A model generated the notes under the pieces. That model worked only from the letters and a program-made list of their open reading frames with translations. It ran no database searches and was not told the origin of the DNA. Below, piece after piece: positions 16,472 through 64,000 of a stretch of DNA of 64,000 nt. The stretch lies in IMG/VR virus record IMGVR_UViG_3300031555_010821. One strand, written 5' to 3'. Position 1 is the stretch's first letter, and every line of letters starts with the position of its first letter. Source of the stretch: an uncultured virus (IMG/VR IMGVR_UViG_3300031555_010821). Lineage: Duplodnaviria > Heunggongvirae > Uroviricota > Caudoviricetes. The position numbers were made by a program, and so were the translations under genes.

Positions 16472-16867
16472 TCAGCGTCGGGAGTAGTCTCCGACGGCCC
16501 GTAGGCCATGATTTTGCCACTCTTTTTTACTTTCCAAGACATCGTGGTTCAGGTCCTTTCCGTTTGTTTTATCATTTCGTGTTGTAGCACTCGCAAAGTA
16601 AATCACAGGCTTGCCGATATAGAGGCACAAATCATGCTCCAGTTTGGCGCCGCTGCTTTCGTACCAGTCGGGCAGAAAGTACACAACATCTGCACACTCG
16701 ATCATCGAGATACAGATGCGCATATAATCGCCGCCGCTCAAGCCTTCGGGAAGTTCGGCAGGATTCAGCACGATAAGGCCATCCTGCTCGAGGTCTCTTT
16801 TACCGATCTCGAACTTCTCGCGGTAGCCGGGATCTCCTGTGATTTTGCCTGCAATATATGCTTTCAT
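16472..16867 (-). CDS. DUF4406-like (nucleoside deoxyribosyltransferase-fold) protein
   Basis: YIAGKITG...LNPA...W.ESSGAKLE. Confidence 0.85.
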   Translation of the reverse strand: MKAYIAGKITGDPGYREKFEIGKRDLEQDGLIVLNPAELPEGLSGGDYMRICISMIECADVVYFLPDWYESSGAKLEHDLCLYIGKPVIYFASATTRNDKTNGKDLNHDVLESKKEWQNHGLRAVGDYSRR

Positions 16868-17815: not shown

Positions 17816-18391
17816 CTATCGGTCAAGAAAAACAAGGCCGTCTGCTAGACAATGTCTTACGACGCCATTCTCATCCTCTACAAGAGCGGTAGTGAAGTTC
17901 CCGGGCCCAGTCTCAAACTCCTCGTAGTCGCTCGCCCATTGGTGAAACCAACCAGTAATGCAGTGAATGGTTCTATCTTCCCAATATTTCGCACTACACT
18001 TGCGAAGACCGCTCACCGGTGAAGCTCTTCTGAACGGAGCTTCTGTCCATGTGCGGAAGTTCACGATCTGATCTACCAGCGTGTCTGTTTCTCCTTTGAA
18101 GCAGATCGCTCGATCGTCGACATAGCAGATTGCAGGCGGCTTCTCAGCCATGACATCATCAACAATGATGTCATGTTGGCGCAGGTACTGTCGCACTGCT
18201 CCCATTCCGTTGAGGGAAACACAGCGGGTGGATACGACCACGACTTTATAGCCGCGCTCGCGGAGCTGTTCAATAACCTCTCTGATGCCGGGCACAACAG
18301 GGTCAGTGACGATATCAGCTCCTTGCCAACCGCTCTGATAAGAGTGAATAACGCCGTCAAAATCGAATACGACTGTCGGTTTGTATTCCAC
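17816..18391 (-). CDS. HAD-superfamily phosphatase with extra C-terminal domain
   Basis: FDFDG motif I, VVSTR motif II, KPP and YVDDR motifs III/IV. Confidence 0.8.
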   Translation of the reverse strand: MEYKPTVVFDFDGVIHSYQSGWQGADIVTDPVVPGIREVIEQLRERGYKVVVVSTRCVSLNGMGAVRQYLRQHDIIVDDVMAEKPPAICYVDDRAICFKGETDTLVDQIVNFRTWTEAPFRRASPVSGLRKCSAKYWEDRTIHCITGWFHQWASDYEEFETGPGNFTTALVEDENGVVRHCLADGLVFLDR

Positions 18392-18407
18392 GAGGATCCT
18401 CCCTTTC

Positions 18408-18629
18408 TTATTCTTCGGGCACTTCTTCGAGCGCACCATAGATGATGTCTTCTGTCTCGTCTGTTCGCATCCACTCGATCAGAACGTGACCGCAGTATTT
18501 GCACTGGCTCACAATGACAGTGGCGTTCGTATGGATTTCTTTTTGGACGTATCGACAAGGGTCGATGGCATCCACGCCGTTTGGCCGAATGATGACGCCG
18601 TTCGGATGCTGGCATTTTTGTCGTGCCAT
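18408..18629 (-). CDS. Small Cys-containing hypothetical protein
   Basis: Coupled ORF. Confidence 0.6.
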   Translation of the reverse strand: MARQKCQHPNGVIIRPNGVDAIDPCRYVQKEIHTNATVIVSQCKYCGHVLIEWMRTDETEDIIYGALEEVPEE

Positions 18630-52399: not shown

Positions 52400-55300
52400 T
52401 CAACTACCTGTTTTGGATTCAGTGGCCTTTTTATTTTGGAAAACTCTGTTCGCTGCTGCAATATCGACGGCGCCTTTCTTCCTATTGTATCTCAGATGGA
52501 AACAGGTTTTTATAGCTCCGCCGGGGACTCCAACTGCAAGCTCGCCGGTTTTGGTGTTGAAGCGGTAAATCTCGCCGTCTTTGGAAAGAAATCCATCGAT
52601 GTCACCACCGCACGGTTGCTTGAGGAAATCAATTGCGTGTTGAACATACTGTTCTTCATTAAGGCCGGAATACTCATGGCCGTGGGAACGGAAATGTTTC
52701 TTCCGCTTCTTCTTATCCGCGAAGTCAAGGCAAGGCGTGTTTTCGCCGTTTGCGGAAGGTTTCGGCGTGGAGCCACCTATCTTTCCGGGACGACCTCCAT
52801 GGTTGTGGTTGCCGGAATTGCTGTTCCCTTCGTCTGAGTTTTCCTCTATCGTTATCGTAGCTGTTCTTGCGGATTTGTCAATAGATTTTTCGGAAATATT
52901 CGGATTTGTTGAGCCGTCGGTATTTCCTTTTTGACGAATGGTAATCATAGGGTACTCATTGCCATTCGGAGCTGTATAAGTTCCTTTCCCAACTACTTCG
53001 AATTTTCCTCCGACGAAGCTCTCCTCCTGTGACGTGGCATAGGCGCCTGCATAGGGAGAAACATCGAACTGTTTCGTAGCTCCGACAGTCTTGAACACAA
53101 CAGGATCTTCCATATATGCGTACTCATCGGAGTTTTCATCCAGCATCGAGTTTGTTACTTTCGAGTTCCTTGTAAAGCTCCGAAGCTCGCCATTGAACTG
53201 CAATTCTTGCCCGACTTCAGCAGAGGAAGCCGTGAATCTGCTTTCTTCAATCCGATACAGAGGCTGATCGGTTTCGGACATATTGTTCTTTATGAACTCG
53301 ATATCGTCTTTCTCTAAAATGTCTCCAACAGAGTATCCGCCTCCGACAAAAGATTCCATTCTTGAAGCAAAGCCCTCAGGTTCAATTCGCTCACCTGAGC
53401 CCTTAACATCAAGGGAGCTTTCTTTTGTGTCTTTGTCAGATATAACATGAGCGAGCTCTTCTTCGGACAGGGACCTTCCGCTATTCGGCGAAGTCCAATT
53501 TCCGTCGTCGCCAAGTTCAAAGGTGTCGTTGTAGGTTTCATCCATATCGCGGTCGTAGACCGATACGGTTACTTTCGAACCTTTTCCGCACTTCTTTAGT
53601 TCGGAAGTGACTTCACCGCTTGTCTTGCTTCCAAGATTGTTTTCTCCGCCATTGGGAGCAGAGCCTCCCACCTGGCCGGGTACGCCCTCGTGGTTATGGT
53701 TGCCGCTATCGGGCCCCCCGTCCTCTTCAAAAGGGCAGACGCAATCCTCCAGCACTTTGAGGCCATCCGCAAACGGTTGAAAAAGCGATGCCGCGAGGTC
53801 ATGGATTTCTTCCAGAGTGCGGAACGTAGGATTGGTCATCTCCAGATCTACACAATCCGGTTCGCCCTCATAATCGGTGCAAAGGAACAGATACGGAGTC
53901 AGGCCAGTGTCGGGCTCAACAGGGCCAGTCCCGATCGGGATGAGTGCTTTCGGGCTGATGCCGAATTCCTCTTCCGTTTCGCGGAACGCTGCCTGTTCAG
54001 GGCTTTCGCCCTTCTCGCCATGACCGCCAGGACCACAAATCAGACCGTAGCCGAAGTCATTGTGGCGAGTTCCTGTCAGGATCTTGCCCTCTGAAACCAC
54101 GAGGACGCCCACAGAAAAGGGTTTCCCTTCCCCTTGGGTTGAGTTATACCCTTCTGCGTTATCTTGGTTTTCCGCCCTTTTAGCGGATTTTTGCGCCGCT
54201 TCTTCGGCCTGTTCGACCTCTTCTGCGCTCATATCCTGAGGCAGTTTCGTAGCCGCCGGAGCATTGGCAGGAGCGCTGCCTTCTGTACCGGGATCTGTGG
54301 CATGGGCGTTAATGTCAACACCCTGAGCGTACTGAGCGAAATCACCAGACTCGAAGATGCTAACCGGGTTGGTGCCCGATGCCTCCATGCCGGTGTATGC
54401 GGCCATCAGATCGTCCTCATCTTCATATTCGTCCAACAAGGTTTCGATGTCGAACTCGCTGCTGTCAGCCAATTTGCGGCGGACCTCAGACGGGTCAACT
54501 GCTTCCATGCCGACGTAAATCTGAGCAGTCTGGGCTCTTACCTGGGCAGTTGCCGCTTTCTGCTGGTCAAGAGTGGCCTTTTCGGTATCACTCATAGACC
54601 ACAGCGGATTGAATTCGATCTTGATTTTTGGCACTTCATCCACTTCACCGGATGCAATGCCCGCTTGAAAGACGATGGAGAGCAAATACCGCAGGTTGCT
54701 CTTAATCATTCTTTTCTGGATGCGCTCGACGAAGTTGTACCAGTTTTCCAGATCGCTCTCGCCAGTTGAATTCATGCCGGCCGGAGAACGACCGAACAGA
54801 ATGGTCTGGGGAATGTTGGTCAACGCCGACAGATAGTTGCAAGCAGAGTCGATGACGTCAGCAACGCCAGAGAACTGGAAGGAACGGAAGTCATAATCTT
54901 CGCCTTCGCTGTCAATGGTGATGCTGTTCATCATGCCGCGAGCCATGTCGATTGTCTGAAGTCTGCGGAGCACTTTGCTCTCGCCTTCTTCAGTAGCCAA
55001 CTCAGCAGCCAGGTCTTTCATCTTATAGACCGGCTGAACAGATCTGTCGAGCATTCTAGGTGCGCTGCGATGTGAAATCTCAGCGTCCTGGATGGCCTTG
55101 TGGATGCGGATGTATTCAGGCATACCCCAGAACTGGTAGATGGAGTTCGTAGAATTCTCGGGCAAAATGCCGTTCTGGAAAACTAGGCAACGGCTCTCAT
55201 GTACCGTAAAATTTCCGTATCTGCTATATACGGAGTAGAATTCAGGCATACCGAGACGACTGCCGCGAGTGCGGAACGGATCTCTCGGGTCATAGTGGAA

Positions 55301-55819
55301 CATGCTCTCATAATCAGGCTGGATAACTGAGCGATCATAAACACGAATGTCGTCAATGGACTTGATGTGCTTCCAATCCAGAGGCTCCTCCAGACCGTGG
55401 CCGTCATTGATGAGCATGACAGCAATAGAGCCGCCAAACAGACGCGCCCACTTGATGGCAGTCATGGCAGTTTCTTCCCAATCAAGCTCGTCAAGAGCTT
55501 CCTGGTAAAACGATTCGACTTCCTCATCCGATACATCACTCAGCGTGAAGCCGTGTTTCAACGCCTCTTCCGCAGGGGCGTCGATGATTTTGGCGAACAG
55601 GCCATTGCCCTCATAGAACATTGTCAGGGACTCATCTGGAACGGTAACTTCGGGCACAAAAATGTACCGCTCGTGGCTGTCCTTTTCAGTGCCGTATCGG
55701 TTCAGGAGGTTCATATAGCCGTCAGCACGGTATGGTCTGACCGCCTTGCCGGCCTGCTTTTCCAGAAGTCTGGCGTAGGCCATCATGCGGTCTACCTGCT
55801 GCTTTTTCTTATCGCCCAT
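52400..55819 (-). CDS. DUF1073-type portal fused to Nudix, ART-like and RNase-toxin-like domains
   Basis: Follows terL; WARLFGG, IPQTILFGRSPAGMNSTGESD, FNPLW; perfect Nudix box; YR/SFT/QEE; KHFRSHG. Confidence 0.9.
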   Translation of the reverse strand: MGDKKKQQVDRMMAYARLLEKQAGKAVRPYRADGYMNLLNRYGTEKDSHERYIFVPEVTVPDESLTMFYEGNGLFAKIIDAPAEEALKHGFTLSDVSDEEVESFYQEALDELDWEETAMTAIKWARLFGGSIAVMLINDGHGLEEPLDWKHIKSIDDIRVYDRSVIQPDYESMFHYDPRDPFRTRGSRLGMPEFYSVYSRYGNFTVHESRCLVFQNGILPENSTNSIYQFWGMPEYIRIHKAIQDAEISHRSAPRMLDRSVQPVYKMKDLAAELATEEGESKVLRRLQTIDMARGMMNSITIDSEGEDYDFRSFQFSGVADVIDSACNYLSALTNIPQTILFGRSPAGMNSTGESDLENWYNFVERIQKRMIKSNLRYLLSIVFQAGIASGEVDEVPKIKIEFNPLWSMSDTEKATLDQQKAATAQVRAQTAQIYVGMEAVDPSEVRRKLADSSEFDIETLLDEYEDEDDLMAAYTGMEASGTNPVSIFESGDFAQYAQGVDINAHATDPGTEGSAPANAPAATKLPQDMSAEEVEQAEEAAQKSAKRAENQDNAEGYNSTQGEGKPFSVGVLVVSEGKILTGTRHNDFGYGLICGPGGHGEKGESPEQAAFRETEEEFGISPKALIPIGTGPVEPDTGLTPYLFLCTDYEGEPDCVDLEMTNPTFRTLEEIHDLAASLFQPFADGLKVLEDCVCPFEEDGGPDSGNHNHEGVPGQVGGSAPNGGENNLGSKTSGEVTSELKKCGKGSKVTVSVYDRDMDETYNDTFELGDDGNWTSPNSGRSLSEEELAHVISDKDTKESSLDVKGSGERIEPEGFASRMESFVGGGYSVGDILEKDDIEFIKNNMSETDQPLYRIEESRFTASSAEVGQELQFNGELRSFTRNSKVTNSMLDENSDEYAYMEDPVVFKTVGATKQFDVSPYAGAYATSQEESFVGGKFEVVGKGTYTAPNGNEYPMITIRQKGNTDGSTNPNISEKSIDKSARTATITIEENSDEGNSNSGNHNHGGRPGKIGGSTPKPSANGENTPCLDFADKKKRKKHFRSHGHEYSGLNEEQYVQHAIDFLKQPCGGDIDGFLSKDGEIYRFNTKTGELAVGVPGGAIKTCFHLRYNRKKGAVDIAAANRVFQNKKATESKTGS

Positions 55820-55844: not shown

Positions 55845-57248
55845 TCAGATCAGATTGCTGACGTTGAATACATTCTTGGTCTCGATCTCCGCAAAGCCGT
55901 TTGCAGAGGCGTCGACCATATCTTTGAACTTACTGTCAGGGAAGTTCTCAAGCTGATACAGATACTCTTCGTTCCAAGGGCCGTACAGGATGTCAAAGTT
56001 ACCTGCCTGCCACTGTGCAGCCATAGGCTCAGCTCGGGCCTCCTTGCTGCCGGTTTCTGCGACCGCTACCACATCGAAGCCTGCAAGGAACTTGATGTAG
56101 GATTCCGCTTGCTCCTTACCGGCTTGGCCGGGGTCCTTCGGGAGGCGGATGCGGACACGCTTATATGCTGCGCGGTCTGTCTGTGCCGTCAGCTTAATCA
56201 GCTTTCGCACATCAGACGCGGACAATTGTTTGTTGATAACATCTGCGATAAGGTATCGGCCATTCTTGCGTTTGCCGATCAGGACGCCTGCCGTATAAGC
56301 AGGATCGCCGTCCATTGTCTTTTCGGTCGCCGCCAAGTCCCAACACCGTACCCATTGGATGATGTCCTGTGGCACTTTCTCCAGAACCTCGCCGAGCTGA
56401 GTCCGCTTGAAAAACAGACCGGCTGCAGCCTTGATTTTCCAGTTGCCATGCAGCAGACGCTCACGCTCGATCAGAGGCAGTGCGTTCAGGTTTGCCAGAT
56501 AGCCTGGGTTAATCTTCAATAGGGCCTGATTGTCATAAATCGTGGACATGATGAAGGTCACAGACTTAGGCTCGCCGCGCTCTTCGGGAGTTACCAGATT
56601 GAATCGCTCCCAAAGTTCTTCCTGGGTATCTGCCCAATGGACGATTTCTTCACGGCGGACAAAGTAACGGATCTTTCCGCTTCGCTCAGGAATCGGATAG
56701 CCTGTGTCCTGGTCGATCCACCACTCAATGAACTTAGCTACCCAGCTATCCGCATCAGGGTTGCACGTTGCGCGAATGAATGGCGTTACGCCGCAAGTGG
56801 AACGGTTTCGGGAGAGCATATAGAAGAAAGACTTCTCTGAAAAATGCGTCAGCTCATCGAAGCCGATCTCACAAATCTGTGAGCCCTGCCACTTTGCCAG
56901 GTCGATATCACGTTCAATATGAGCAAAGGATACTTTCGACAGAATTCTTCCTTCAGAATTCTTGAACACCCACATATTGCGGGACATCTTTGGCTGAGCG
57001 CCTCTGATTCCTTGATACAGGTTGGAAGCCTCATCCCAAAGGCCACCCTGTGCAAAGATCTGGTTGAAGTTCTTTCGGAATATGGTACAGCCGAAGCCTG
57101 GTACATTCTTATATCGAAGCGGTGACAGTAGGAGTCCATACGACTTTCCACCGCCAGCGGCGCCTCCGTAGATACAGATGTCTGCCTCTGTGGCCAGGAA
57201 GTCAGTTTGCGGACCTTCCTGCGGCTTTAGAATCCGTGGCATATGCAT
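55845..57248 (-). CDS. terL: Terminase large subunit
   Basis: YGGAAGGGKS, FDELTHF, ATCNP, WDLAAT, KDMVDA. Confidence 0.95.
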   Translation of the reverse strand: MHMPRILKPQEGPQTDFLATEADICIYGGAAGGGKSYGLLLSPLRYKNVPGFGCTIFRKNFNQIFAQGGLWDEASNLYQGIRGAQPKMSRNMWVFKNSEGRILSKVSFAHIERDIDLAKWQGSQICEIGFDELTHFSEKSFFYMLSRNRSTCGVTPFIRATCNPDADSWVAKFIEWWIDQDTGYPIPERSGKIRYFVRREEIVHWADTQEELWERFNLVTPEERGEPKSVTFIMSTIYDNQALLKINPGYLANLNALPLIERERLLHGNWKIKAAAGLFFKRTQLGEVLEKVPQDIIQWVRCWDLAATEKTMDGDPAYTAGVLIGKRKNGRYLIADVINKQLSASDVRKLIKLTAQTDRAAYKRVRIRLPKDPGQAGKEQAESYIKFLAGFDVVAVAETGSKEARAEPMAAQWQAGNFDILYGPWNEEYLYQLENFPDSKFKDMVDASANGFAEIETKNVFNVSNLI

Positions 57249-57315
57249 CCCCTTCCTGTGTTACAAAGAGCAAGCCTCCACGGTAGTTTGATTGGTAAAC
57301 GTGTCTGGGGGCAGG

Positions 57316-57906
57316 TTAATCTTCATCGTCCAGATCCTCGTCATCTTCTCCGGCTTCCTCTGCCACCATCGGCAAGTTGAGGTTTTTGTCGCGGCCATTG
57401 TCAGGCAAGTAAATGAAGACGTCTTCGACCTCTTCTCCCTCATCACCGTCGATCACAGTGGTGGAATACCGGCCAAGAGTGCCTGCATCCATTGCCTGAA
57501 GTCTGGCTTCGCTTTCCATGTTCTTGCGCATATCTGCGTTCAAGCTCTCGCGCTCCTTGCGCTCTTCCTCAGAGTCATAGCCGGCAATCTTGAGTAGCTT
57601 CTCAGCAGCCTGCAAATTTCCACCGGCTGCCATAACCAAAAGACGTGCTACGAGAACATCGATGTTTCGAGCGCCCTCTACCAAATCGTCCTCATTGACG
57701 ACCTTCAAAAGGTTGTCTCTCATCTGCCCTCTGGCAGTCATCGCAAGCAGTTGCTGAGCGGCTCTTCTGGCTGCACTTTTTGCCCTCCTGGCCTCACCAG
57801 ATTTGATGCCTCCGATACGGCCTTTTTCCGCCGCTTCCTCACCGCTTTGAAACCGGGTTTCTTTGCCCAGTTCGACGATGTCATTTTTCTTGTTTTCGTT
57901 CTCCAT
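57316..57906 (-). CDS. Probable terminase small subunit
   Basis: GRIGGIKSGEARRAK; C-terminal IYLPDNGR; precedes terL. Confidence 0.75.
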   Translation of the reverse strand: MENENKKNDIVELGKETRFQSGEEAAEKGRIGGIKSGEARRAKSAARRAAQQLLAMTARGQMRDNLLKVVNEDDLVEGARNIDVLVARLLVMAAGGNLQAAEKLLKIAGYDSEEERKERESLNADMRKNMESEARLQAMDAGTLGRYSTTVIDGDEGEEVEDVFIYLPDNGRDKNLNLPMVAEEAGEDDEDLDDED

Positions 57907-57977
57907 TTCGTCACCTTCATGGCATGAAAACAGCCCCTACGCACAAGGTCGTAGAGGCCATTTTACGGGCTTATTTT

Positions 57978-58220
57978 TTAGGTGGGGTTGTTAGCCCCGT
58001 AGAGCAATCGGACTGTTTCTACGCCCTTTTCCACGGTTTCTGCTATATCCAATCCAATGGAGATATAGAAGCGCGGATTCGTCATGCACTCGAATGCTCG
58101 GGTCATAGCGTCCTTCTGCTCTTTGGTGATGCCAAGGCGAAAACCCTTGGCGATTCGGAGCGCCGATTTGAAGTCTCCGGCCGCCACGAAACGGCGGACC
58201 ATATCACTCTTTCGCTCCAT
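57978..58220 (-). CDS. Conserved hypothetical protein
   Basis: ALRIAKGF...PRFY; coupled to upstream gene. Confidence 0.7.
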   Translation of the reverse strand: MERKSDMVRRFVAAGDFKSALRIAKGFRLGITKEQKDAMTRAFECMTNPRFYISIGLDIAETVEKGVETVRLLYGANNPT

Positions 58221-58221
58221 A

Positions 58222-59334
58222 TCAGTAAGTCAGGCCGAGAATTGTCTTGGCCGGATTCGCTTCATGTGTCTTGCGGTACTCCAGACTTTCCAGGTACTCG
58301 CCTTCTGTGCAGATGCCGGTTCGATGCTTGTAATCGTATCGCAGCGCCCAGCTTCCTTCTTCGAAGAATGCTTTCTGGAACGGTCGAAGTGCATCGTTCT
58401 CCACCAGGTTCATCTCCCAATCTGTGTGGCCAGCTCGCTTACCCTGAATCGTGTGAACGTCGAAAACGTATTCAGGAATTTTACCGCCCTCAAGAATGCA
58501 TTTTCGAATATCGATCAGTTCACAGGGAACGTCTGTATGGTCAATGGTTTCAACCAGATCGATATACGGAGTAGATCTTACCGACTTGTACTTTCCACTG
58601 AGCGCATACATCAGAATCATGATGGCCTTGGACTGGAAGAGAGGGTCGCGCTTATCGGGCGTCAACTTCTTGTTCGTGAAGTTATCCGCGTTGATGAGTG
58701 CGTCGATTTCATTCGCATAAGCACCGCCAGTGAAATCTTCATCAGCAGCCTTGATGACCTTCCAGATCAGATCATGCTTCAATGTGGTCAGCATCTTGAT
58801 TGCGTAGCCCGAATCTTCCATATTGCATTCGCGGATGGAATGATAAAGCAGATGGGCATAGACATCATGGGTCTGAGCGTCATAATCAAAGATTCCGCCG
58901 ATCTGTGCATCAGCATCCAATCGTGCTTTGAGCTCCGCTGCATCCTGTGTTGTGCAGAGAGGCCGGCCGGTGCCTTCGTTGTCACTCAGAATGAAGTTGC
59001 AGGAATAATAACAAGCGTCCCTGCTCTTGAGCGCATCGCACAAGAGAGAGACGGCAACTGAAACATATCCACTTTTCTTGCTGTATCCCTTCAGTCCTTC
59101 ATTGGCTGCCAGATGCTTCTTATACAGAGCATCGACCTCTTTCGTGAGTACGCCCCAGCAATCTTCGGCCGAGACTACATACAGACGCTTCCAGAGTGTA
59201 CCGTCGTAGTTGCCGAACATTTCATAGGCCGCGTAACCGGCCTTCTCCTTGTCGCCTCTGCGAATCGCTTTCTGAAGCAGACTCGCCATGACAAACATAT
59301 TGTGTCCGCTTTTCGTTGTAGGCATATAACCCAT
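58222..59334 (-). CDS. RarA/MgsA C-terminal-like helical protein without ATPase domain
   Basis: SLLQKAIRRGD, WKRL.VVSAED, IPEYVFDVHT. Confidence 0.7.
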   Translation of the reverse strand: MGYMPTTKSGHNMFVMASLLQKAIRRGDKEKAGYAAYEMFGNYDGTLWKRLYVVSAEDCWGVLTKEVDALYKKHLAANEGLKGYSKKSGYVSVAVSLLCDALKSRDACYYSCNFILSDNEGTGRPLCTTQDAAELKARLDADAQIGGIFDYDAQTHDVYAHLLYHSIRECNMEDSGYAIKMLTTLKHDLIWKVIKAADEDFTGGAYANEIDALINADNFTNKKLTPDKRDPLFQSKAIMILMYALSGKYKSVRSTPYIDLVETIDHTDVPCELIDIRKCILEGGKIPEYVFDVHTIQGKRAGHTDWEMNLVENDALRPFQKAFFEEGSWALRYDYKHRTGICTEGEYLESLEYRKTHEANPAKTILGLTY

Positions 59335-59370
59335 TCATTTACCTCCTCATTTGGTTCGGGTTTTCCTTCA

Positions 59371-59404
59371 ATCGTATCGTAGCATAACCTACCGCCATGT
59401 AAAG
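59371..59404 (-). promoter_or_regulatory. Repeated phage promoter, copy 6
   Basis: TTTACA-tggcggtaggttatgc-TACGAT. Confidence 0.65.
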
Positions 59405-59430
59405 AGGAAAGTCAGTCGCCTACTGGTTTT

Positions 59431-60150
59431 TTATCGCGGAACGCGGATGTAGATTTTATTCGACCTCAGGTCGTAATCGAAGTATTTGCCCCACTTGATT
59501 TTCATGCGTTCAAAGCTGGCAATCATACTTGCGCGGCTCTTCTTGGAGTTACCACCCTTGTTGGTGTCAGTTCCACCATGAGAGCAGAAATACTTCGGCT
59601 TGAGGACGATGCGGTTTTTCAGCAGTTCCTGGAACACAACATCAGTATCACAGCAGTATCCAATTTCATCGCTGAACTTGGATTTGTACACCTTGCGGTT
59701 AATCCAACAGATGCCGCCCGATGTACCTGCAAAAGCAAATTCAGAGTTGTAGTTCCAGGGGGCGATGGTGGCATCCACACATCCATATCCGATGTCCAGA
59801 TCTACCATCAACTGAGCGATGCGCTCAATCTCCGACGTGACGATCTCGGGGTTTGTGACCCGTTCGTTCTTATCAAGACGGTAGATAACGTCGGCCATGT
59901 CATCACCAAGGGTACAGATGATATCCTCTTCTGCATTCTCAATGACCCAATTCCAAACCTTGGAGACGCTGTTAATCTTTTCGTCCTCGACCGCGATGAG
60001 GTTCTCACGCGGAATGGTCTGAGCATACAACTCATATTCCGACTCGCGGACTACTACCTTGTAGTATTCCAGGAGTGTATGGGTGACAATTGTGTCGTAC
60101 CTTTTATAGCTCGGGATATAGATGCCTAACGGCCTGTACTCTTCTCCCAT
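59431..60150 (-). CDS. TAGT/GREB1-like GT-A glycosyltransferase
   Basis: IYIPSYKR, LGDD, DTD, TNKGGN, KWG. Confidence 0.78.
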   Translation of the reverse strand: MGEEYRPLGIYIPSYKRYDTIVTHTLLEYYKVVVRESEYELYAQTIPRENLIAVEDEKINSVSKVWNWVIENAEEDIICTLGDDMADVIYRLDKNERVTNPEIVTSEIERIAQLMVDLDIGYGCVDATIAPWNYNSEFAFAGTSGGICWINRKVYKSKFSDEIGYCCDTDVVFQELLKNRIVLKPKYFCSHGGTDTNKGGNSKKSRASMIASFERMKIKWGKYFDYDLRSNKIYIRVPR

Positions 60151-60151
60151 G

Positions 60152-60853
60152 TTAACCTCCGTTCACTTTCCACGACGGTGGGAGATTAAACCCGCAGTTG
60201 AAAATGTAGTCGATCGCAGACAGGTTTTCAACAAAGTCGCCGTGAATTTGGGGGTATACAATCGGCTCATAGTCCGTGTATACCAATTGGATGCCTCTCT
60301 TGACATAATCCTCTTCAACGTGGTACGCCATAGCCCCTGTACCACTGAGGTAGGTATCCGCACCTAATTGCTCGCACATTTGGAACAGCCGCTCATCTTT
60401 ATGCCCGGAGATATCAAGATCTGCGGAAGCCCGCAGGGTCTTTGCAGTAATGCCGAATCGATTCATGCAATGCATAATGAGCTCGATGTTCAGCTCCGTC
60501 ATTTTGAGCTGATCGGCGCCGGCCATCTTACGCATGATGTCTGCCAGCTCCATCCCTTCCTCAAAGAACGGGGCCTTCCGATACTCCTGGTCAATGGTCT
60601 TTGCCAGCTTCGGCAGATTATACTTAGGGTCGCTGACCATGACATCGATCAGCGGATCGTCATGATGTGCAGTGACCGGAACGGTCAACTTCTTTGGTCC
60701 TGCTGCTGTGTAGATGCGGTTCCAGTTATGCATCCCGCTTTTTGAAAATGCAACATCGTCGGAAAAGACGAGGACGTTGCTCCGGGATGCTTTATAGAAA
60801 AAGCCCATGTAAGGCAAGAAATTGGGCTGATGTGAAGCGAGAATCATGGGCAC
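60152..60853 (-). CDS. wbqC: WbqC-family protein
   Basis: HQPNFLPYMGFFYK, DDV.F, NRI, LTVP, YRKAPFF, YLSG.G..Y, LSAIDYIFNCG. Confidence 0.9.
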   Translation of the reverse strand: MPMILASHQPNFLPYMGFFYKASRSNVLVFSDDVAFSKSGMHNWNRIYTAAGPKKLTVPVTAHHDDPLIDVMVSDPKYNLPKLAKTIDQEYRKAPFFEEGMELADIMRKMAGADQLKMTELNIELIMHCMNRFGITAKTLRASADLDISGHKDERLFQMCEQLGADTYLSGTGAMAYHVEEDYVKRGIQLVYTDYEPIVYPQIHGDFVENLSAIDYIFNCGFNLPPSWKVNGG

Positions 60854-60854
60854 C

Positions 60855-61517
60855 TCACTTCAGTTCGCGGATAAGCGCAAATGCCTCAGCCGCTTCAACG
60901 CCTACCGTTGTCCCCCTGTACCGAGCCAGCGCTTCAACAGCCTTGATTGACCGTGCCTTGGGGAACGGCTCTTCCTGGGATTCATAGATGCGCAGCGCTT
61001 CGAGCTTGAGGAACGCCGTTTCCGTGATGTCTTCGTAGACAGTCGGTATAAAAGCATTTCCTTCATTCGGAATATCCCAGCCGGTTTCGGAAGGAACTTC
61101 GTAGGCGTACACCCGTTTTACCCTGTGGGAGTATTTCGGGCGGAGGGCTACCATTGCCGCATCGGCCACCGCTTTGTGGTCAAGGTGAATGTCTCCCCGA
61201 TGCGGGATATAAACCTCGTCGGGCATTTCGCTCTGAATGGCAATCAGCAGCTCCTCCGTGAGCTTATGCTGCGGAATCGTACTGAGCTCAGATGCCGGCT
61301 GGCTTCCAAACAGCAGTCTTTTTACACCTAGGAGGCGATTCGCTTTGACCGCTTCCTCTCTGCCTTTTTCAATCAGGGCCTGATCGAACAGCGGGGCGTA
61401 TCCTCTTGTCACAATGTAAACGACCACTTTATCTCCGGCGGCTACCCTTTTTGCAATCATGCCGCCACAGCCCAGGACTTCATCGTCCGGGTGGGGCGCA
61501 ATAACAAAAACATTCAT
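60855..61517 (-). CDS. PIG-L/LmbE-family deacetylase
   Basis: APHPDDEVLGCGG, HLDH, YESQ, AEAF. Confidence 0.93.
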   Translation of the reverse strand: MNVFVIAPHPDDEVLGCGGMIAKRVAAGDKVVVYIVTRGYAPLFDQALIEKGREEAVKANRLLGVKRLLFGSQPASELSTIPQHKLTEELLIAIQSEMPDEVYIPHRGDIHLDHKAVADAAMVALRPKYSHRVKRVYAYEVPSETGWDIPNEGNAFIPTVYEDITETAFLKLEALRIYESQEEPFPKARSIKAVEALARYRGTTVGVEAAEAFALIRELK

Positions 61518-62146
61518 TTGGAGCTCCGCTTCTTTTCCACAGCCGGAACGCCTGCGACAAAAGCACCAGCAGGAACGTCGTTCAGGACGACTGCGCCTGC
61601 CGCTACTGTGGCTTCATCGCCAATGCTGTAACCGCTGACGACCGATGCCTGACATCCGACGTAGCAGTTATTGCCGATGTGGACGCCGCCGCAGATATTG
61701 CAGCCCATCGAAATGTTGTTGTTGTCGCCGACCACGCTGTCTGTCGCAAGGACGGCCTTGCAATTGACGATGTTGTGGTCTCCGAGCTTGGCGGAAGCAT
61801 AGATAATCGCAAACTTGTAGATGTAATTGCCTGTGCCAATCTCGGCGCCTTCCTCGATGCAAGCAGTTTTGTCGATCAGATTCACCGAATCCAGACCAAG
61901 GCGCTTGATTTCATCGTAGTAGCGTCTTCTCGGCTCAATGTTGCCGATGGCGATGAAATACTTGTGTTCGCGGTACTGCTCGATGTCCGTAATCTTTTGA
62001 TAAACGGGAACACCTTCCACAGTGCCGGTTTTATAGTCATCAACGAAAGCCAGCACATGAAAGCCGTTCTCCGTTGCCAGTCTTTTGCAGATGCGGCCCT
62101 GCTGGCCTGCACCGCAAATTACGATATTAACAGCATCATTCTTCAT
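61514..62146 (-). CDS. PglD/NeuD-family sugar acetyltransferase
   Basis: IVICGAG, FVDD, IAIG, hexapeptide repeats, GVPA. Confidence 0.9.
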   Translation of the reverse strand: MKNDAVNIVICGAGQQGRICKRLATENGFHVLAFVDDYKTGTVEGVPVYQKITDIEQYREHKYFIAIGNIEPRRRYYDEIKRLGLDSVNLIDKTACIEEGAEIGTGNYIYKFAIIYASAKLGDHNIVNCKAVLATDSVVGDNNNISMGCNICGGVHIGNNCYVGCQASVVSGYSIGDEATVAAGAVVLNDVPAGAFVAGVPAVEKKRSSK

Positions 62147-62831
62147 CCGTCCAGACCTCCTGCTCTTCAGTTTCCTCGGAGAGTTCTTCGGGGACGGTCT
62201 GTTCCTCCGGCTGCTCCGAAGGCTTCTGATATCCAGGCAGCTCTTCGAACGGAATGATCGCCGCCTGCATCTGATCGTACCAGATTGCGCGGGCGTTAAT
62301 CTTTCTGTTCGCAATTCTGACCTTGGCGCCCTCAATACCGAGAGCTCGTACCAGGTTGTTATAGTCCAACTGATTGCGGCAGACGATCATGACGTAATCG
62401 TACTTCTCGTAATGGATGAGCTCCATTTCCTTGATGTCACGCTCATTGACCGGCTTCTGCTTGTCGACCTCTTCGCGGAGCGTCATGTCCATCATGTTAT
62501 CAACGCCCCAATCGTTCAGAATGTCCAAATCCCAATCACCTGCGTGGGTGTTGAGCTTGACGTTGACCACTTTCTGTTCCTGAACCGTGAAGCCGATTAG
62601 CATTTTGCAGTCCACCATCATGTCGGGATCCTGCTCCTGGAAGATGGCCACACGCTGATTTCCGCCGATTACCTGGTTCTCTTCATTGATAACGATGATG
62701 TCGAAATCGCCGTACATGTCGAGCGATGCCTTGAGGTCTTTCTTTCGCTGTGTCTTAATCTTTCGGGGATTCCCGAAGTCAAGTCGCAAGTCACCAACGC
62801 GGCGCTTGACGACCTCAATGGTCTTTTCCAT
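62136..62831 (-). CDS. ParB/Srx-domain protein
   Basis: NPRKI...L.ASL..YG...IVIN...IGGNQR...N...GDWD. Confidence 0.82.
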   Translation of the reverse strand: MEKTIEVVKRRVGDLRLDFGNPRKIKTQRKKDLKASLDMYGDFDIIVINEENQVIGGNQRVAIFQEQDPDMMVDCKMLIGFTVQEQKVVNVKLNTHAGDWDLDILNDWGVDNMMDMTLREEVDKQKPVNERDIKEMELIHYEKYDYVMIVCRNQLDYNNLVRALGIEGAKVRIANRKINARAIWYDQMQAAIIPFEELPGYQKPSEQPEEQTVPEELSEETEEQEVWTDEE

Positions 62832-63042
62832 TGCTTGCACCTCCATGTTCATAAAAAAAGCACTGCTCATCAGCAGTGCATCGTGGATTTCCCGTCCCCT
62901 AACGGTTCATCCGATTTTTCTGTTTTACAAAATAGTACATGAAGTGCGTGTCTTTCAATGACATTTAGTGCGATTACATGACATTGCATGACAGATTCAG
63001 GAAATATTTTGTGATTTTTGCGCCCGAATGGCTTCATCGCCC

Positions 63043-63082
63043 AAAAAAAGAAAGCCGGCACCGAGAATTGGTGCCGGCTTTC
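63043..63082 (-). terminator. Intrinsic terminator
   Basis: aaagccggcacc...ggtgccggcttt plus U-tract. Confidence 0.75.
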
Positions 63083-63096
63083 GCTCTGGATGTGTT

Positions 63097-63588
63097 TTAT
63101 CTGGCTGCTAGATGCAGTTGTTTCTTGATGTCTAAGATGGCAAATAGTGCTTGGTCAATGGCCTTATCTAACACCTCAACATTTACCGATTCTTTGTAAG
63201 GGGCCTCGATGGGCTCGATTTCTTTTTTTGGAGCTTCTTGGATTGTATATGTAAATACGTCTTTTTCCAGCCACGACCTGATATCAGATGCAGGGCGTAA
63301 CTTCTCCATAATTTCCTTTGCGGCGGTCAGGTCTGCGAATTGAATATGTGTATAGCTGAATCCACCATTCTTTTCTACGGGATACAGAATCTTTGTCTTA
63401 TCTCCTGCAATGGTGGGGTCATTCACATAATAGTAAGTTCTTCTTCCGCTTTTGGTTCCTGTGCAGGCACCGACAATGTCACATATGGCAAACATAGGAT
63501 TGCCCGAAACAACTGCGATACGAACAGTGTGGGATTTGCTGGTAACGGACGCTGTCTGGAGCTTGTCGATCTTTTTCGAGGCGGTCAT
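63097..63588 (-). CDS. Bro-N-like protein
   Basis: VRIAVVSGNPMFAICDIV resembles Bro-N. Confidence 0.5.
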   Translation of the reverse strand: MTASKKIDKLQTASVTSKSHTVRIAVVSGNPMFAICDIVGACTGTKSGRRTYYYVNDPTIAGDKTKILYPVEKNGGFSYTHIQFADLTAAKEIMEKLRPASDIRSWLEKDVFTYTIQEAPKKEIEPIEAPYKESVNVEVLDKAIDQALFAILDIKKQLHLAAR

Positions 63589-63589
63589 C

Positions 63590-63880
63590 TTACTTCGCCT
63601 CCTTTGCTTCTCTGCGAGCTTTTTCCGCTGCTGCAAATGCATCACACACATGAATGTGGCCAGCCAGTTCTTCAAGTTCCTTGACGAGGATCTCCAGCAT
63701 ATCATGCAAAGCATAAAATGCGTAGCTACCTTTGTTCCTCATGTCTCTCTCGTCATCTCCATGCTCCATGAGATAGAGGTAGCAGCTTTCGAATGCTTCC
63801 ATGATGGCGGTGATCGTAATGGCGGTGTTTCTTACGTTCTGTGGGCTTGCTTTCTTTGTTTTCGAATCGAATAAATACAT
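63590..63880 (-). CDS. Hypothetical protein
   Basis: AAAGGAGG RBS. Confidence 0.65.
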   Translation of the reverse strand: MYLFDSKTKKASPQNVRNTAITITAIMEAFESCYLYLMEHGDDERDMRNKGSYAFYALHDMLEILVKELEELAGHIHVCDAFAAAEKARREAKEAK

Positions 63881-64000
63881 TATCGATTCCTCCTTTCATT
63901 TTCGAGGAATGCATGATATAATGCAGGCAAGACATTTCGATGTCTTCCTTTCATTTGGAGCGCCGCTTTTATTTTCGGCGGTTCTCCTTAGAGGGCCTGG

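Follow-up and report, generated by a model that had tools for sequence, protein, structure and literature searches.

In phages, the closest described systems are DNA hypermodification clusters that combine a TET/JBP-type (5mYOX) dioxygenase, a ParB protein and a glycosyltransferase (GT) (PMC13229309; 10.1101/2023.12.21.572611). A 64,000-nucleotide stretch of an uncultured tailed virus of the class Caudoviricetes (IMG/VR record IMGVR_UViG_3300031555_010821), analysed in full and hereafter called the window, carries a gene module comparable to them, in which a ParB-like protein, a TAGT-family GT and a RarA/MgsA-C-like protein accompany sugar-tailoring enzymes. As far as the available text of the two reports goes, the clusters and the module share a small ParB-type protein consisting of a nucleotide-binding domain (NBD), putative in the module, and a C-terminal domain (CTD) with no helix-turn-helix (HTH), together with a TAGT-type GT of the GT-A fold. 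Both include extra tailoring enzymes that handle sugars or amino acids, and both form clusters in phage genomes, often close to packaging genes. The module differs in that no 5mYOX enzyme, thymidylate synthase (ThyA) homologue or C5-methyltransferase was found in the window or the related records, and a constant RarA/MgsA-C-like partner is present instead. Because this defining feature was sought and not found, the module was set apart from the 5mYOX/ThyA-based kind. The main texts of both reports, in their available parts, do not mention a deacetylase, WbqC or an acetyltransferase.

The mycothiol (MshA-MshB-MshC-MshD) and bacillithiol (BshA-BshB-BshC) pathways share with the module, by family prediction, an identical sequence of steps, namely N-acetylglucosamine (GlcNAc) transfer, PIG-L/LmbE deacetylation, an ATP-dependent ligation of an amino acid to the amine of glucosamine (GlcN) by an enzyme resembling class I aminoacyl-tRNA synthetases (aaRS) and N-acetylation. 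The transferase of the module is a TAGT GT-A enzyme, whereas that of both thiol pathways is a GT4 enzyme of the GT-B fold; its acetyltransferase is a left-handed beta-helix NeuD/PglD protein, whereas MshD of mycothiol synthesis belongs to GNAT. Moreover, the module lies in a phage late operon with ParB, and its acceptor is probably a macromolecule. O-antigen loci also join WbqC with a VioB/PglD-type acetyltransferase, for example for the N-acetylglycyl-viosamine of E. coli O121/Shigella dysenteriae 7. The co-occurrence of WbqC with a NeuD/VioB-family acetyltransferase in these loci and in the module implies an N-acetyl-aminoacyl amino sugar, and phage variants add a dehydratase and an aminotransferase for 4-amino-6-deoxy sugars. 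O-antigen loci assemble the sugar while it is attached to a nucleotide carrier, and their membrane enzymes polymerise it on undecaprenyl phosphate, whereas the phage cassette has no membrane step, a TAGT-type GT, and ParB-like and RarA-C-like partners. Finally, ParB-domain DNA methyltransferase fusions (PHROG 498; PMC12704722, available text) have a homologous ParB N-domain and likewise occur in phages or prophages, coupling the ParB fold to a DNA-modifying activity, which for the module is putative; in the module, ParB stands apart as an individual protein that has a conserved CTD, and the coupled enzyme is a GT instead of a methyltransferase. No description of a ParB, TAGT and MgsA_C-like module, nor of PIG-L/WbqC tailoring in phages, was found in the literature, the supplementary tables of the survey papers lying outside the search.

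The module is tentatively read, at a little under an even chance, as a late-operon system for amino-sugar tailoring with phage DNA as the favoured acceptor. Its conserved core is a triad comprising the ParB-like protein, the TAGT-family GT and a 370-aa protein, and the tailoring genes are swappable. The sequence-only reading of the window had placed a five-gene cluster at 59431-62831, two genes upstream of the terminase small-subunit gene terS, with overlaps or 1-nt gaps between the genes. All five open reading frames (ORFs) were indeed located there on the minus strand, and Pfam, NCBIfam and PHROG searches agreed with the families named for them (ParB-like, NeuD/PglD, PIG-L, WbqC and TAGT). 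The ParB/PglD and PglD/PIG-L pairs overlap by 11 and 4 nt, respectively, and two 1-nt gaps separate PIG-L from WbqC (7 nt with the ATG start of WbqC) and WbqC from TAGT. Strong Shine-Dalgarno sequences precede most cassette ORFs, and two genes (58222-59334 and 57978-58220) stand between TAGT and the putative terS. The further suggestion that tailoring genes had been inserted between two DNA-modification genes stood in spirit, as ParB and TAGT are constant and the set and order of tailoring genes vary; however, a third constant partner, the MgsA_C-like 370-aa gene just outside the five-gene cluster, had been overlooked.

The neighbourhood survey that the same reading had proposed bore out the linkage. 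A WbqC-seeded scan of IMG/VR gave 29 loci, 25 of which had enough flank. ParB, TAGT and the 370-aa gene were present in 25/25 of these, PIG-L in 24/25, a related terL (large terminase subunit gene) in 24/25 and PglD in 10/25. Since the cassette arrangement recurs in 25/25 loci, it is not a product of chance. The scan seeded with the TAGT alignment, run over one genome per prokaryote species, returned 16 loci, all with ParB and the 370-aa gene (16/16) and 13 with WbqC. The carriers were metagenome-assembled genomes (MAGs) of Lachnospiraceae, Oscillospiraceae, Acutalibacteraceae, Ruminococcus, Peptostreptococcaceae, one Treponema and one Bacteroides, and an isolate of Parabacteroides faecalis. 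A search seeded with the 370-aa protein found 206 relatives, the best 80 of which were kept as 79 loci; TAGT and ParB were both present in 57 of the 58 loci with at least 4 kb upstream (locus counts are not independent, several loci being near-identical). The exception is L102, which lacks a GT and whose ParB is a canonical one bearing an HTH. The view of ParB and the 370-aa protein as plain packaging neighbours with the GT inserted as a 'moron' was rejected, the GT being missing in this one locus of 58. In Clostridia phages, terS directly follows the module, and in Actinobacteria phages the same adjacency bridges the two ends of the genome.

The composition of the tailoring set varied among the loci. 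The window and other loci contain PglD, PIG-L and WbqC, and some loci PIG-L and WbqC. The minimal locus L045 has WbqC alone, with no deacetylase. Another set comprises a PseC-like aminotransferase, a PseB/FnlA-like 4,6-dehydratase, PIG-L and WbqC, and a further one a UDP-GlcNAc 3-dehydrogenase-like enzyme, an aminotransferase-acetyltransferase fusion and WbqC. A WbqC-free set consists of UDP-galactopyranose mutase, a PylC-like ATP-grasp ligase, an Orn/DAP/Arg-type pyridoxal phosphate-dependent decarboxylase and a GNAT protein; in some loci, PIG-L, a Mur ligase or a radical-SAM enzyme is added to it. The recurrent theme combines a sugar with an amine or amino acid and an acetyl group. Given the enzyme types shared with the thiol pathways, the product could be a mycothiol/bacillithiol-like metabolite, or the module could modify a nucleotide or another metabolite, in order to control redox state or to interfere with the signalling or defence of the host. 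Such a small-molecule function is improbable: the GT is of the TAGT GT-A type and not the GT4 GT-B type of MshA/BshA, the constant ParB-like and RarA-C-like partners are not metabolic enzymes, and the place beside terS is kept across phyla. The swapping of the sugar chemistry itself (2-amino, 4-amino-6-deoxy, 3-amino and galactofuranose) points to decoration rather than to one cofactor.

The ParB-like protein (231 aa; 62136-62831, minus strand) lies in an ORF that extends to 62870. Its start was set at the ATG at 62831 because GGAGGT is located 7 nt upstream and the position agrees with the start of 15 relatives. The protein matched PHROG 620 'ParB-like partition protein' (3.3e-16) and the N-terminus of PHROG 498 'DNA methyltransferase' (1.1e-14); a Pfam search including ParB_N gave no match at E<=0.01. 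In the alignment of 16 relatives, GNPR and GGNQR-type motifs are invariant in the N-terminal, putatively ParB/Srx-type domain, and a second conserved block lies towards the C-terminus, at about residues 133-185. HTH_ParB was detected neither in the Pfam scan nor in the alignment. An NBD and a CTD without a DNA-binding domain are also reported, in the available text of PMC13229309, for ParB activators of post-replicative phage thymine dioxygenases, which act on double-stranded DNA, and the window protein, with its putative NBD, has this architecture. No TET/JBP (5mYOX) dioxygenase was found in the window, the variant loci or the related records, either as the cognate partner of the ParB-like protein or in association with TAGT. 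Among cultured phages, 80 records matched the ParB-like protein. In 56 of them, all Microbacterium phages, the match included the CTD, and in the other 24, from Firmicutes phages, it was confined to the N-domain. All 12 of the N-domain-only matches listed fall in genes annotated as DNA or adenine methyltransferase, in agreement with the frequency of ParB-methyltransferase fusions in phages, reported as common in the available text of PMC12704722.

The GT (239 aa; 59431-60150, minus strand) matched the TAGT family PF20691 at 35.1 bits (cut-off 27.5), the match being partial (residues 10-101 on profile positions 3-107 of 205). The match to PHROG 842 'beta-glucosyl-HMC-alpha-glucosyltransferase' (6.2e-12) was nearly full-length (residues 10-202). 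Among the relatives, L004 scored 19.9 bits with PF20691, under the cut-off like several others, and L016 (28.5) and L130 (29.0, profile 3-197) passed. The fold of the protein is GT-A, and an invariant DD (D83, D84) occupies the DxD position. Its best named structural matches in BFVD were TAGT proteins and the T-even beta-glucosyl-HMC-alpha-glucosyltransferase, and comparison of the model with solved structures returned generic GT-A enzymes only. By sequence, the profile had no match among solved structures at E<=10. Affiliation with polysaccharide GT2 enzymes, which the sequence-only reading had named as a result that would refute its proposed pathway, was checked and not found: PF20691 is above its cut-off and the best named BFVD matches are to TAGT and T-even enzymes. 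The family comprises at least 553 protein clusters at 90% identity, with no functional name among the best 120 listed.

The third member of the triad (370 aa; 58222-59334, minus strand) matched PHROG 16866 at 6.4e-35 and had no Pfam match at E<=0.01, MgsA_C (PF12002) included. Over residues 3-58, its profile weakly matched structures consisting of MgsA_C only, namely 2qw6 (E 0.011), 2r9g (0.026) and 3ctd (0.4). Its ESM Atlas neighbours were clusters bearing MgsA_C, found in 11-45% of their members. From these weak profile matches and Atlas neighbours, the protein resembles a stand-alone RarA/MgsA C-terminal domain.

The acetyltransferase (210 aa; 61514-62146, minus strand) belongs to the NeuD/PglD/VioB family of left-handed beta-helix N-acetyltransferases, with matches to PglD_N (53.4 bits), Hexapep (46.2 bits) and TIGR03570 NeuD/PglB/VioB (180.5 bits, cut-off 160.8). 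The PIG-L/LmbE-family de-N-acetylase (220 aa; 60855-61517, minus strand) matched PF02585 at 84.3 bits (cut-off 28.2). The metal-binding and catalytic motifs of PIG-L/LmbE enzymes are an N-terminal PHPDDE and HxDH; they are present as PHPDDE at residues 8-13 and HLDH at 111-114. Its best NCBIfam match was BshB1 (68.6 bits), under the cut-off of 182.5, so it is not an equivalog of that enzyme. The WbqC-family protein (60152-60853, minus strand; 233 aa with a GTG start or 231 aa from the ATG at 60847) matched PF08889 at 195.4 bits (cut-off 21.3) over residues 9-222, on profile positions 1-213 of 218. Its neighbour in the ESM Atlas was a WbqC cluster (TM 0.91). In the structural model, BshC is the nearest enzyme and the nucleotide-binding fold is class I aaRS-like (HUP), with an invariant H8-Q9-P10 directly after strand 1 that would occupy the place of the class I HIGH motif. 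The protein is thus predicted from its modelled fold to be a BshC/MshC-like amino-acid ligase. No sequence similarity to BshC/MshC was detectable, and five matches of the WbqC profile to solved structures by sequence were judged to be due to chance.

We propose a two-layered mechanism. The constant layer would consist of the soluble TAGT-type GT-A enzyme, the small ParB-like protein (NBD and CTD) and the stand-alone RarA/MgsA-C-like protein, while the variable layer would supply and decorate the sugar. The order of the steps, the sugar, the amino acid and the acceptor that we infer are as follows. TAGT would transfer an N-acetylhexosamine to the acceptor, in the simplest case GlcNAc taken from the UDP-GlcNAc of the host; PIG-L would remove the N-acetyl group to free the 2-amine; WbqC would ligate an amino acid, possibly glycine according to the sequence-only reading, to this amine in an ATP-driven reaction; and the NeuD/PglD acetyltransferase would cap the new alpha-amine, giving an N-acetyl-aminoacyl-glucosamine adduct. 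As acceptor, the double-stranded DNA of the phage itself is the most likely; it would be modified once replicated and shortly before it is packaged. As a cognate partner of the DNA-acting enzyme, the ParB-like protein may activate or target it, by analogy with the ParB-dependent phage thymine dioxygenases.

Several lines of evidence favour DNA. They include the ParB partner with its relatives in DNA modification, the RarA-like partner, the viral relatives of the GT and the terS-adjacent position across phyla, as well as the unrelated envelopes and virion modules of the carriers and the lack of membrane segments. The hosts of the triad comprise Clostridia, Bacteroidales, a Treponema MAG and Microbacterium. 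In triad loci, terL is 53 to 87% identical to that of the window, and some carriers have a different family of terminase (Terminase_6N vs TerL_ATPase) and portal (Phage_portal_3 vs SPP1_portal). Because of these unrelated hosts and differing TerL and portal families, DNA fits better than a host surface polymer or a single virion protein. Surface modification would mean that a prophage alters teichoic acid, capsule or O-antigen against superinfection or re-adsorption of progeny, a role compatible with the O-antigen-type tailoring enzymes and yet very unlikely: hosts with unrelated envelopes have the same triad, the module is situated in the late operon and not beside lysogeny genes, and it also occurs in Microbacterium phages described as strictly lytic in the available text of PMC7302621. 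Neither a membrane segment nor a signal-like hydrophobic stretch was found in a Kyte-Doolittle 19-residue scan of all seven proteins (top mean 1.57), and no flippase or polyprenol-linked step is encoded nearby. Glycosylation of virion proteins is an unlikely explanation as well. In this case, the GT would place an N-acyl amino sugar on capsid, tail or portal proteins late in infection, for instance for shielding or altered adsorption, with ParB and the MgsA_C-like protein as regulators or as neighbours in the packaging module. The late-operon position suits it; nevertheless, the triad is kept across differing terminase and portal families, so that no single virion acceptor is conserved. Furthermore, the linked ParB fold (57/58, 25/25 and 16/16 loci) has no known role in protein glycosylation, and its cultured-phage relatives are the N-domains of DNA methyltransferases.

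Enzymes able to prepare DNA for glycosylation were sought in five related records, of which three have a rating of complete. The ThyA family was absent from all five (0/5), as was C5-methyltransferase (0/5), the same searches being positive as controls in 10/14 and 9/14 genomes, respectively. Tet_JBP was also absent (0/5), a weak blank since its control was positive nowhere. Pfam scans of 82 window ORFs, of the variant loci and of 107 ORFs of G003, a record rated complete (excluding its 28 cassette/structural ORFs and the 4 that cross locus borders), revealed no enzyme making a known sugar acceptor on DNA. None was seen among the 92 annotated features of the Microbacterium phage KaiHaiDragon either. 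The window, the variant loci and G003 also gave no Pfam match to a 2-oxoglutarate (2OG)-oxygenase family. The caveat of the sequence-only reading that the window has no enzyme for hydroxymethylated bases (hmC/hmU) or of the TET type thus holds and extends to related records rated complete. An N6_N4 methyltransferase candidate in G005 (19.4 bits, sub-threshold, 5 stops) was not counted as a gene. As a separate observation, G003 encodes a 487-aa radical-SAM protein (L032 13257-14720) and a PAPS-reductase-like protein (L034 9257-10123), both far from the cassette; counterparts of the two were not detected in the window.

These blanks weigh against DNA as the acceptor, and so do the following points. 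The upstream edge of the window is about 1.1 kb beyond ParB, the rest of its own genome falling outside the window. All the module proteins are acidic (median pI: ParB 5.1, TAGT 5.4, 370-aa protein 5.9), which is unusual among DNA-binding enzymes. Fused longer forms of TAGT (ParB-GT or GT-MgsA_C) were not found among 675 candidates at E<=0.001, which is weak evidence. According to the available text of the survey preprint (10.1101/2023.12.21.572611), GT contigs without a neighbouring 5mYOX/ThyS (~65%) were judged less likely to act on DNA. Membership in the TAGT family does not imply a DNA acceptor, if one goes by the animal member GREB1, which O-GlcNAcylates a protein (PMC7968844, available text). 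Tailoring before transfer is possible because the dehydratase and aminotransferase of the variants act on UDP-sugars by family precedent, and L045, with WbqC and no deacetylase, is not explained by the simple four-step order.

PIG-L enzymes and MshC/BshC act on the GlcNAc/GlcN conjugate after transfer. Because of this precedent, tailoring on the acceptor is favoured, and tailoring probably takes place at both levels, the UDP-sugar and the acceptor. A more specific form of the DNA reading, possible though rather doubtful, is glycosylation independent of a modified precursor. Here, a ParB-activated TAGT would add an amino sugar to DNA without 5-hydroxymethylcytosine (5hmC), 5-hydroxymethyluracil (5hmU) or 5-hydroxycytosine (5hoC), the RarA-C-like protein would guide it to replicating or freshly cut DNA, and the swappable enzymes would then build N-acetyl-aminoacyl-glucosamine-type adducts. 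The sugar could be joined to a canonical base, to the backbone or to ends made by terminase.

Cultured relatives of the module are available. The lytic Microbacterium phages of 56 INPHARED records carry the triad, along with a UDP-glucose dehydrogenase-like gene, at the right end of their genomes, and terS is gene 1 at the left end. In KaiHaiDragon (L139, NC_048020.1 45419-52992), gp85 is ParB-like, gp87 is the GT, gp88 a UDP-glucose dehydrogenase-like protein and gp89 MgsA_C-like. The link of gp85 to the ParB-like family was established with hhalign (97.9%, E 6e-13), and gp85 itself matched ParB_N at 34.9 bits; gp87 was tied to the TAGT family in the same way (94.1%, E 1.3e-7, 199 columns). 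The protein gp89 is annotated as 'AAA-ATPase', a label that looks mistaken because no ATPase domain match was found. The available text of PMC7302621 assigns KaiHaiDragon to cluster EC, treats these phages as strictly lytic and mentions, of the module, just the GT and dehydrogenase genes. Searches of 50,697 cultured phage records with positions 57000-64000 (megablast) and with TAGT (tblastn) gave no match. Owing to its presence in 56 records of cultured lytic phages, the module can be tested at the bench.

If DNA is the target, the module would represent a widespread, undescribed mode of phage genome decoration, with an aminoacyl amino sugar adduct as a chemistry unreported on DNA and made without known priming enzymes. 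It would change the prediction of modified phage DNA from sequence, bear on restriction and CRISPR resistance in gut phages, and offer further enzymes for DNA labelling. Glycosylation without a modified precursor would constitute a class of DNA hypermodification that is both new and widespread among phages of Clostridia, Bacteroidales and Actinobacteria. Whatever the target, the linked ParB/GT/RarA-C-like triad, the BshC-like ligase fold of WbqC and the cultured phages with the triad stand.

The window is a tailed-phage genome that reads nearly all on the minus strand, and the phage is regarded as a gut phage. Of the sequencing runs, 7 from fecal metagenomes were listed, and 6 of these contained half or more of the sampled words; all are available as contigs, and no RNA data set was among those listed. 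The gene at 57978-58220 (minus strand) encodes an 80-aa basic protein (pI 9.6) of unknown function (PHROG 18237, 1.9e-28); it is present in most related loci, where its usual place is between the 370-aa gene and terS. The putative small terminase subunit (terS, 196 aa; 57316-57906, minus strand; PHROG 2412, function unknown) is named from its size and its place directly upstream of terL alone. The large subunit (terL, 467 aa; 55845-57248, minus strand) matched Terminase_6N (69.1 bits), Terminase_6C (52.6 bits) and PHROG 979 (9.9e-156). E217/Pam3-like myovirus structural genes occupy 27.7-57 kb. The portal protein (1139 aa; 52400-55819, minus strand) is a fusion of Phage_portal_3 (residues 66-426) with a NUDIX hydrolase domain (568-630); its long extension at the C-terminus contains two His/Gly-rich stretches that resemble each other (GNHNH...GGS.P). 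The lysis genes encode CHAP-LysM and a glucosaminidase. The early genes are many, with unknown functions; among them, a DUF4406 protein (16472-16867, minus strand; 98.2 bits) and a weak HAD-hydrolase-like protein (17816-18439, minus strand) may belong to nucleotide metabolism, without a link to the cassette.

The nearest related record, G001 (55 kb), gave no ParB match. The IMG/VR fragment L001 (1-5293), compared with window positions 55845-60853, showed 100% protein identity from WbqC through terS (99.6% for TAGT), 84.6% for terL and 58% for the start of the portal. From this drop past terS, a recombination joint is placed between terS and terL, the cassette travelling with terS. Accessory genes just upstream of ParB in relatives include a RelB/YafQ toxin-antitoxin pair (L004 7188-7785), an RtcB RNA ligase (L010 4637-5845) and an ArdA anti-restriction protein (L059 5603-6586). 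A related provirus contains a ribosomal protein S6 homologue (L017 3965-4249; Pfam Ribosomal_S6, 93.4 bits) among its early genes.

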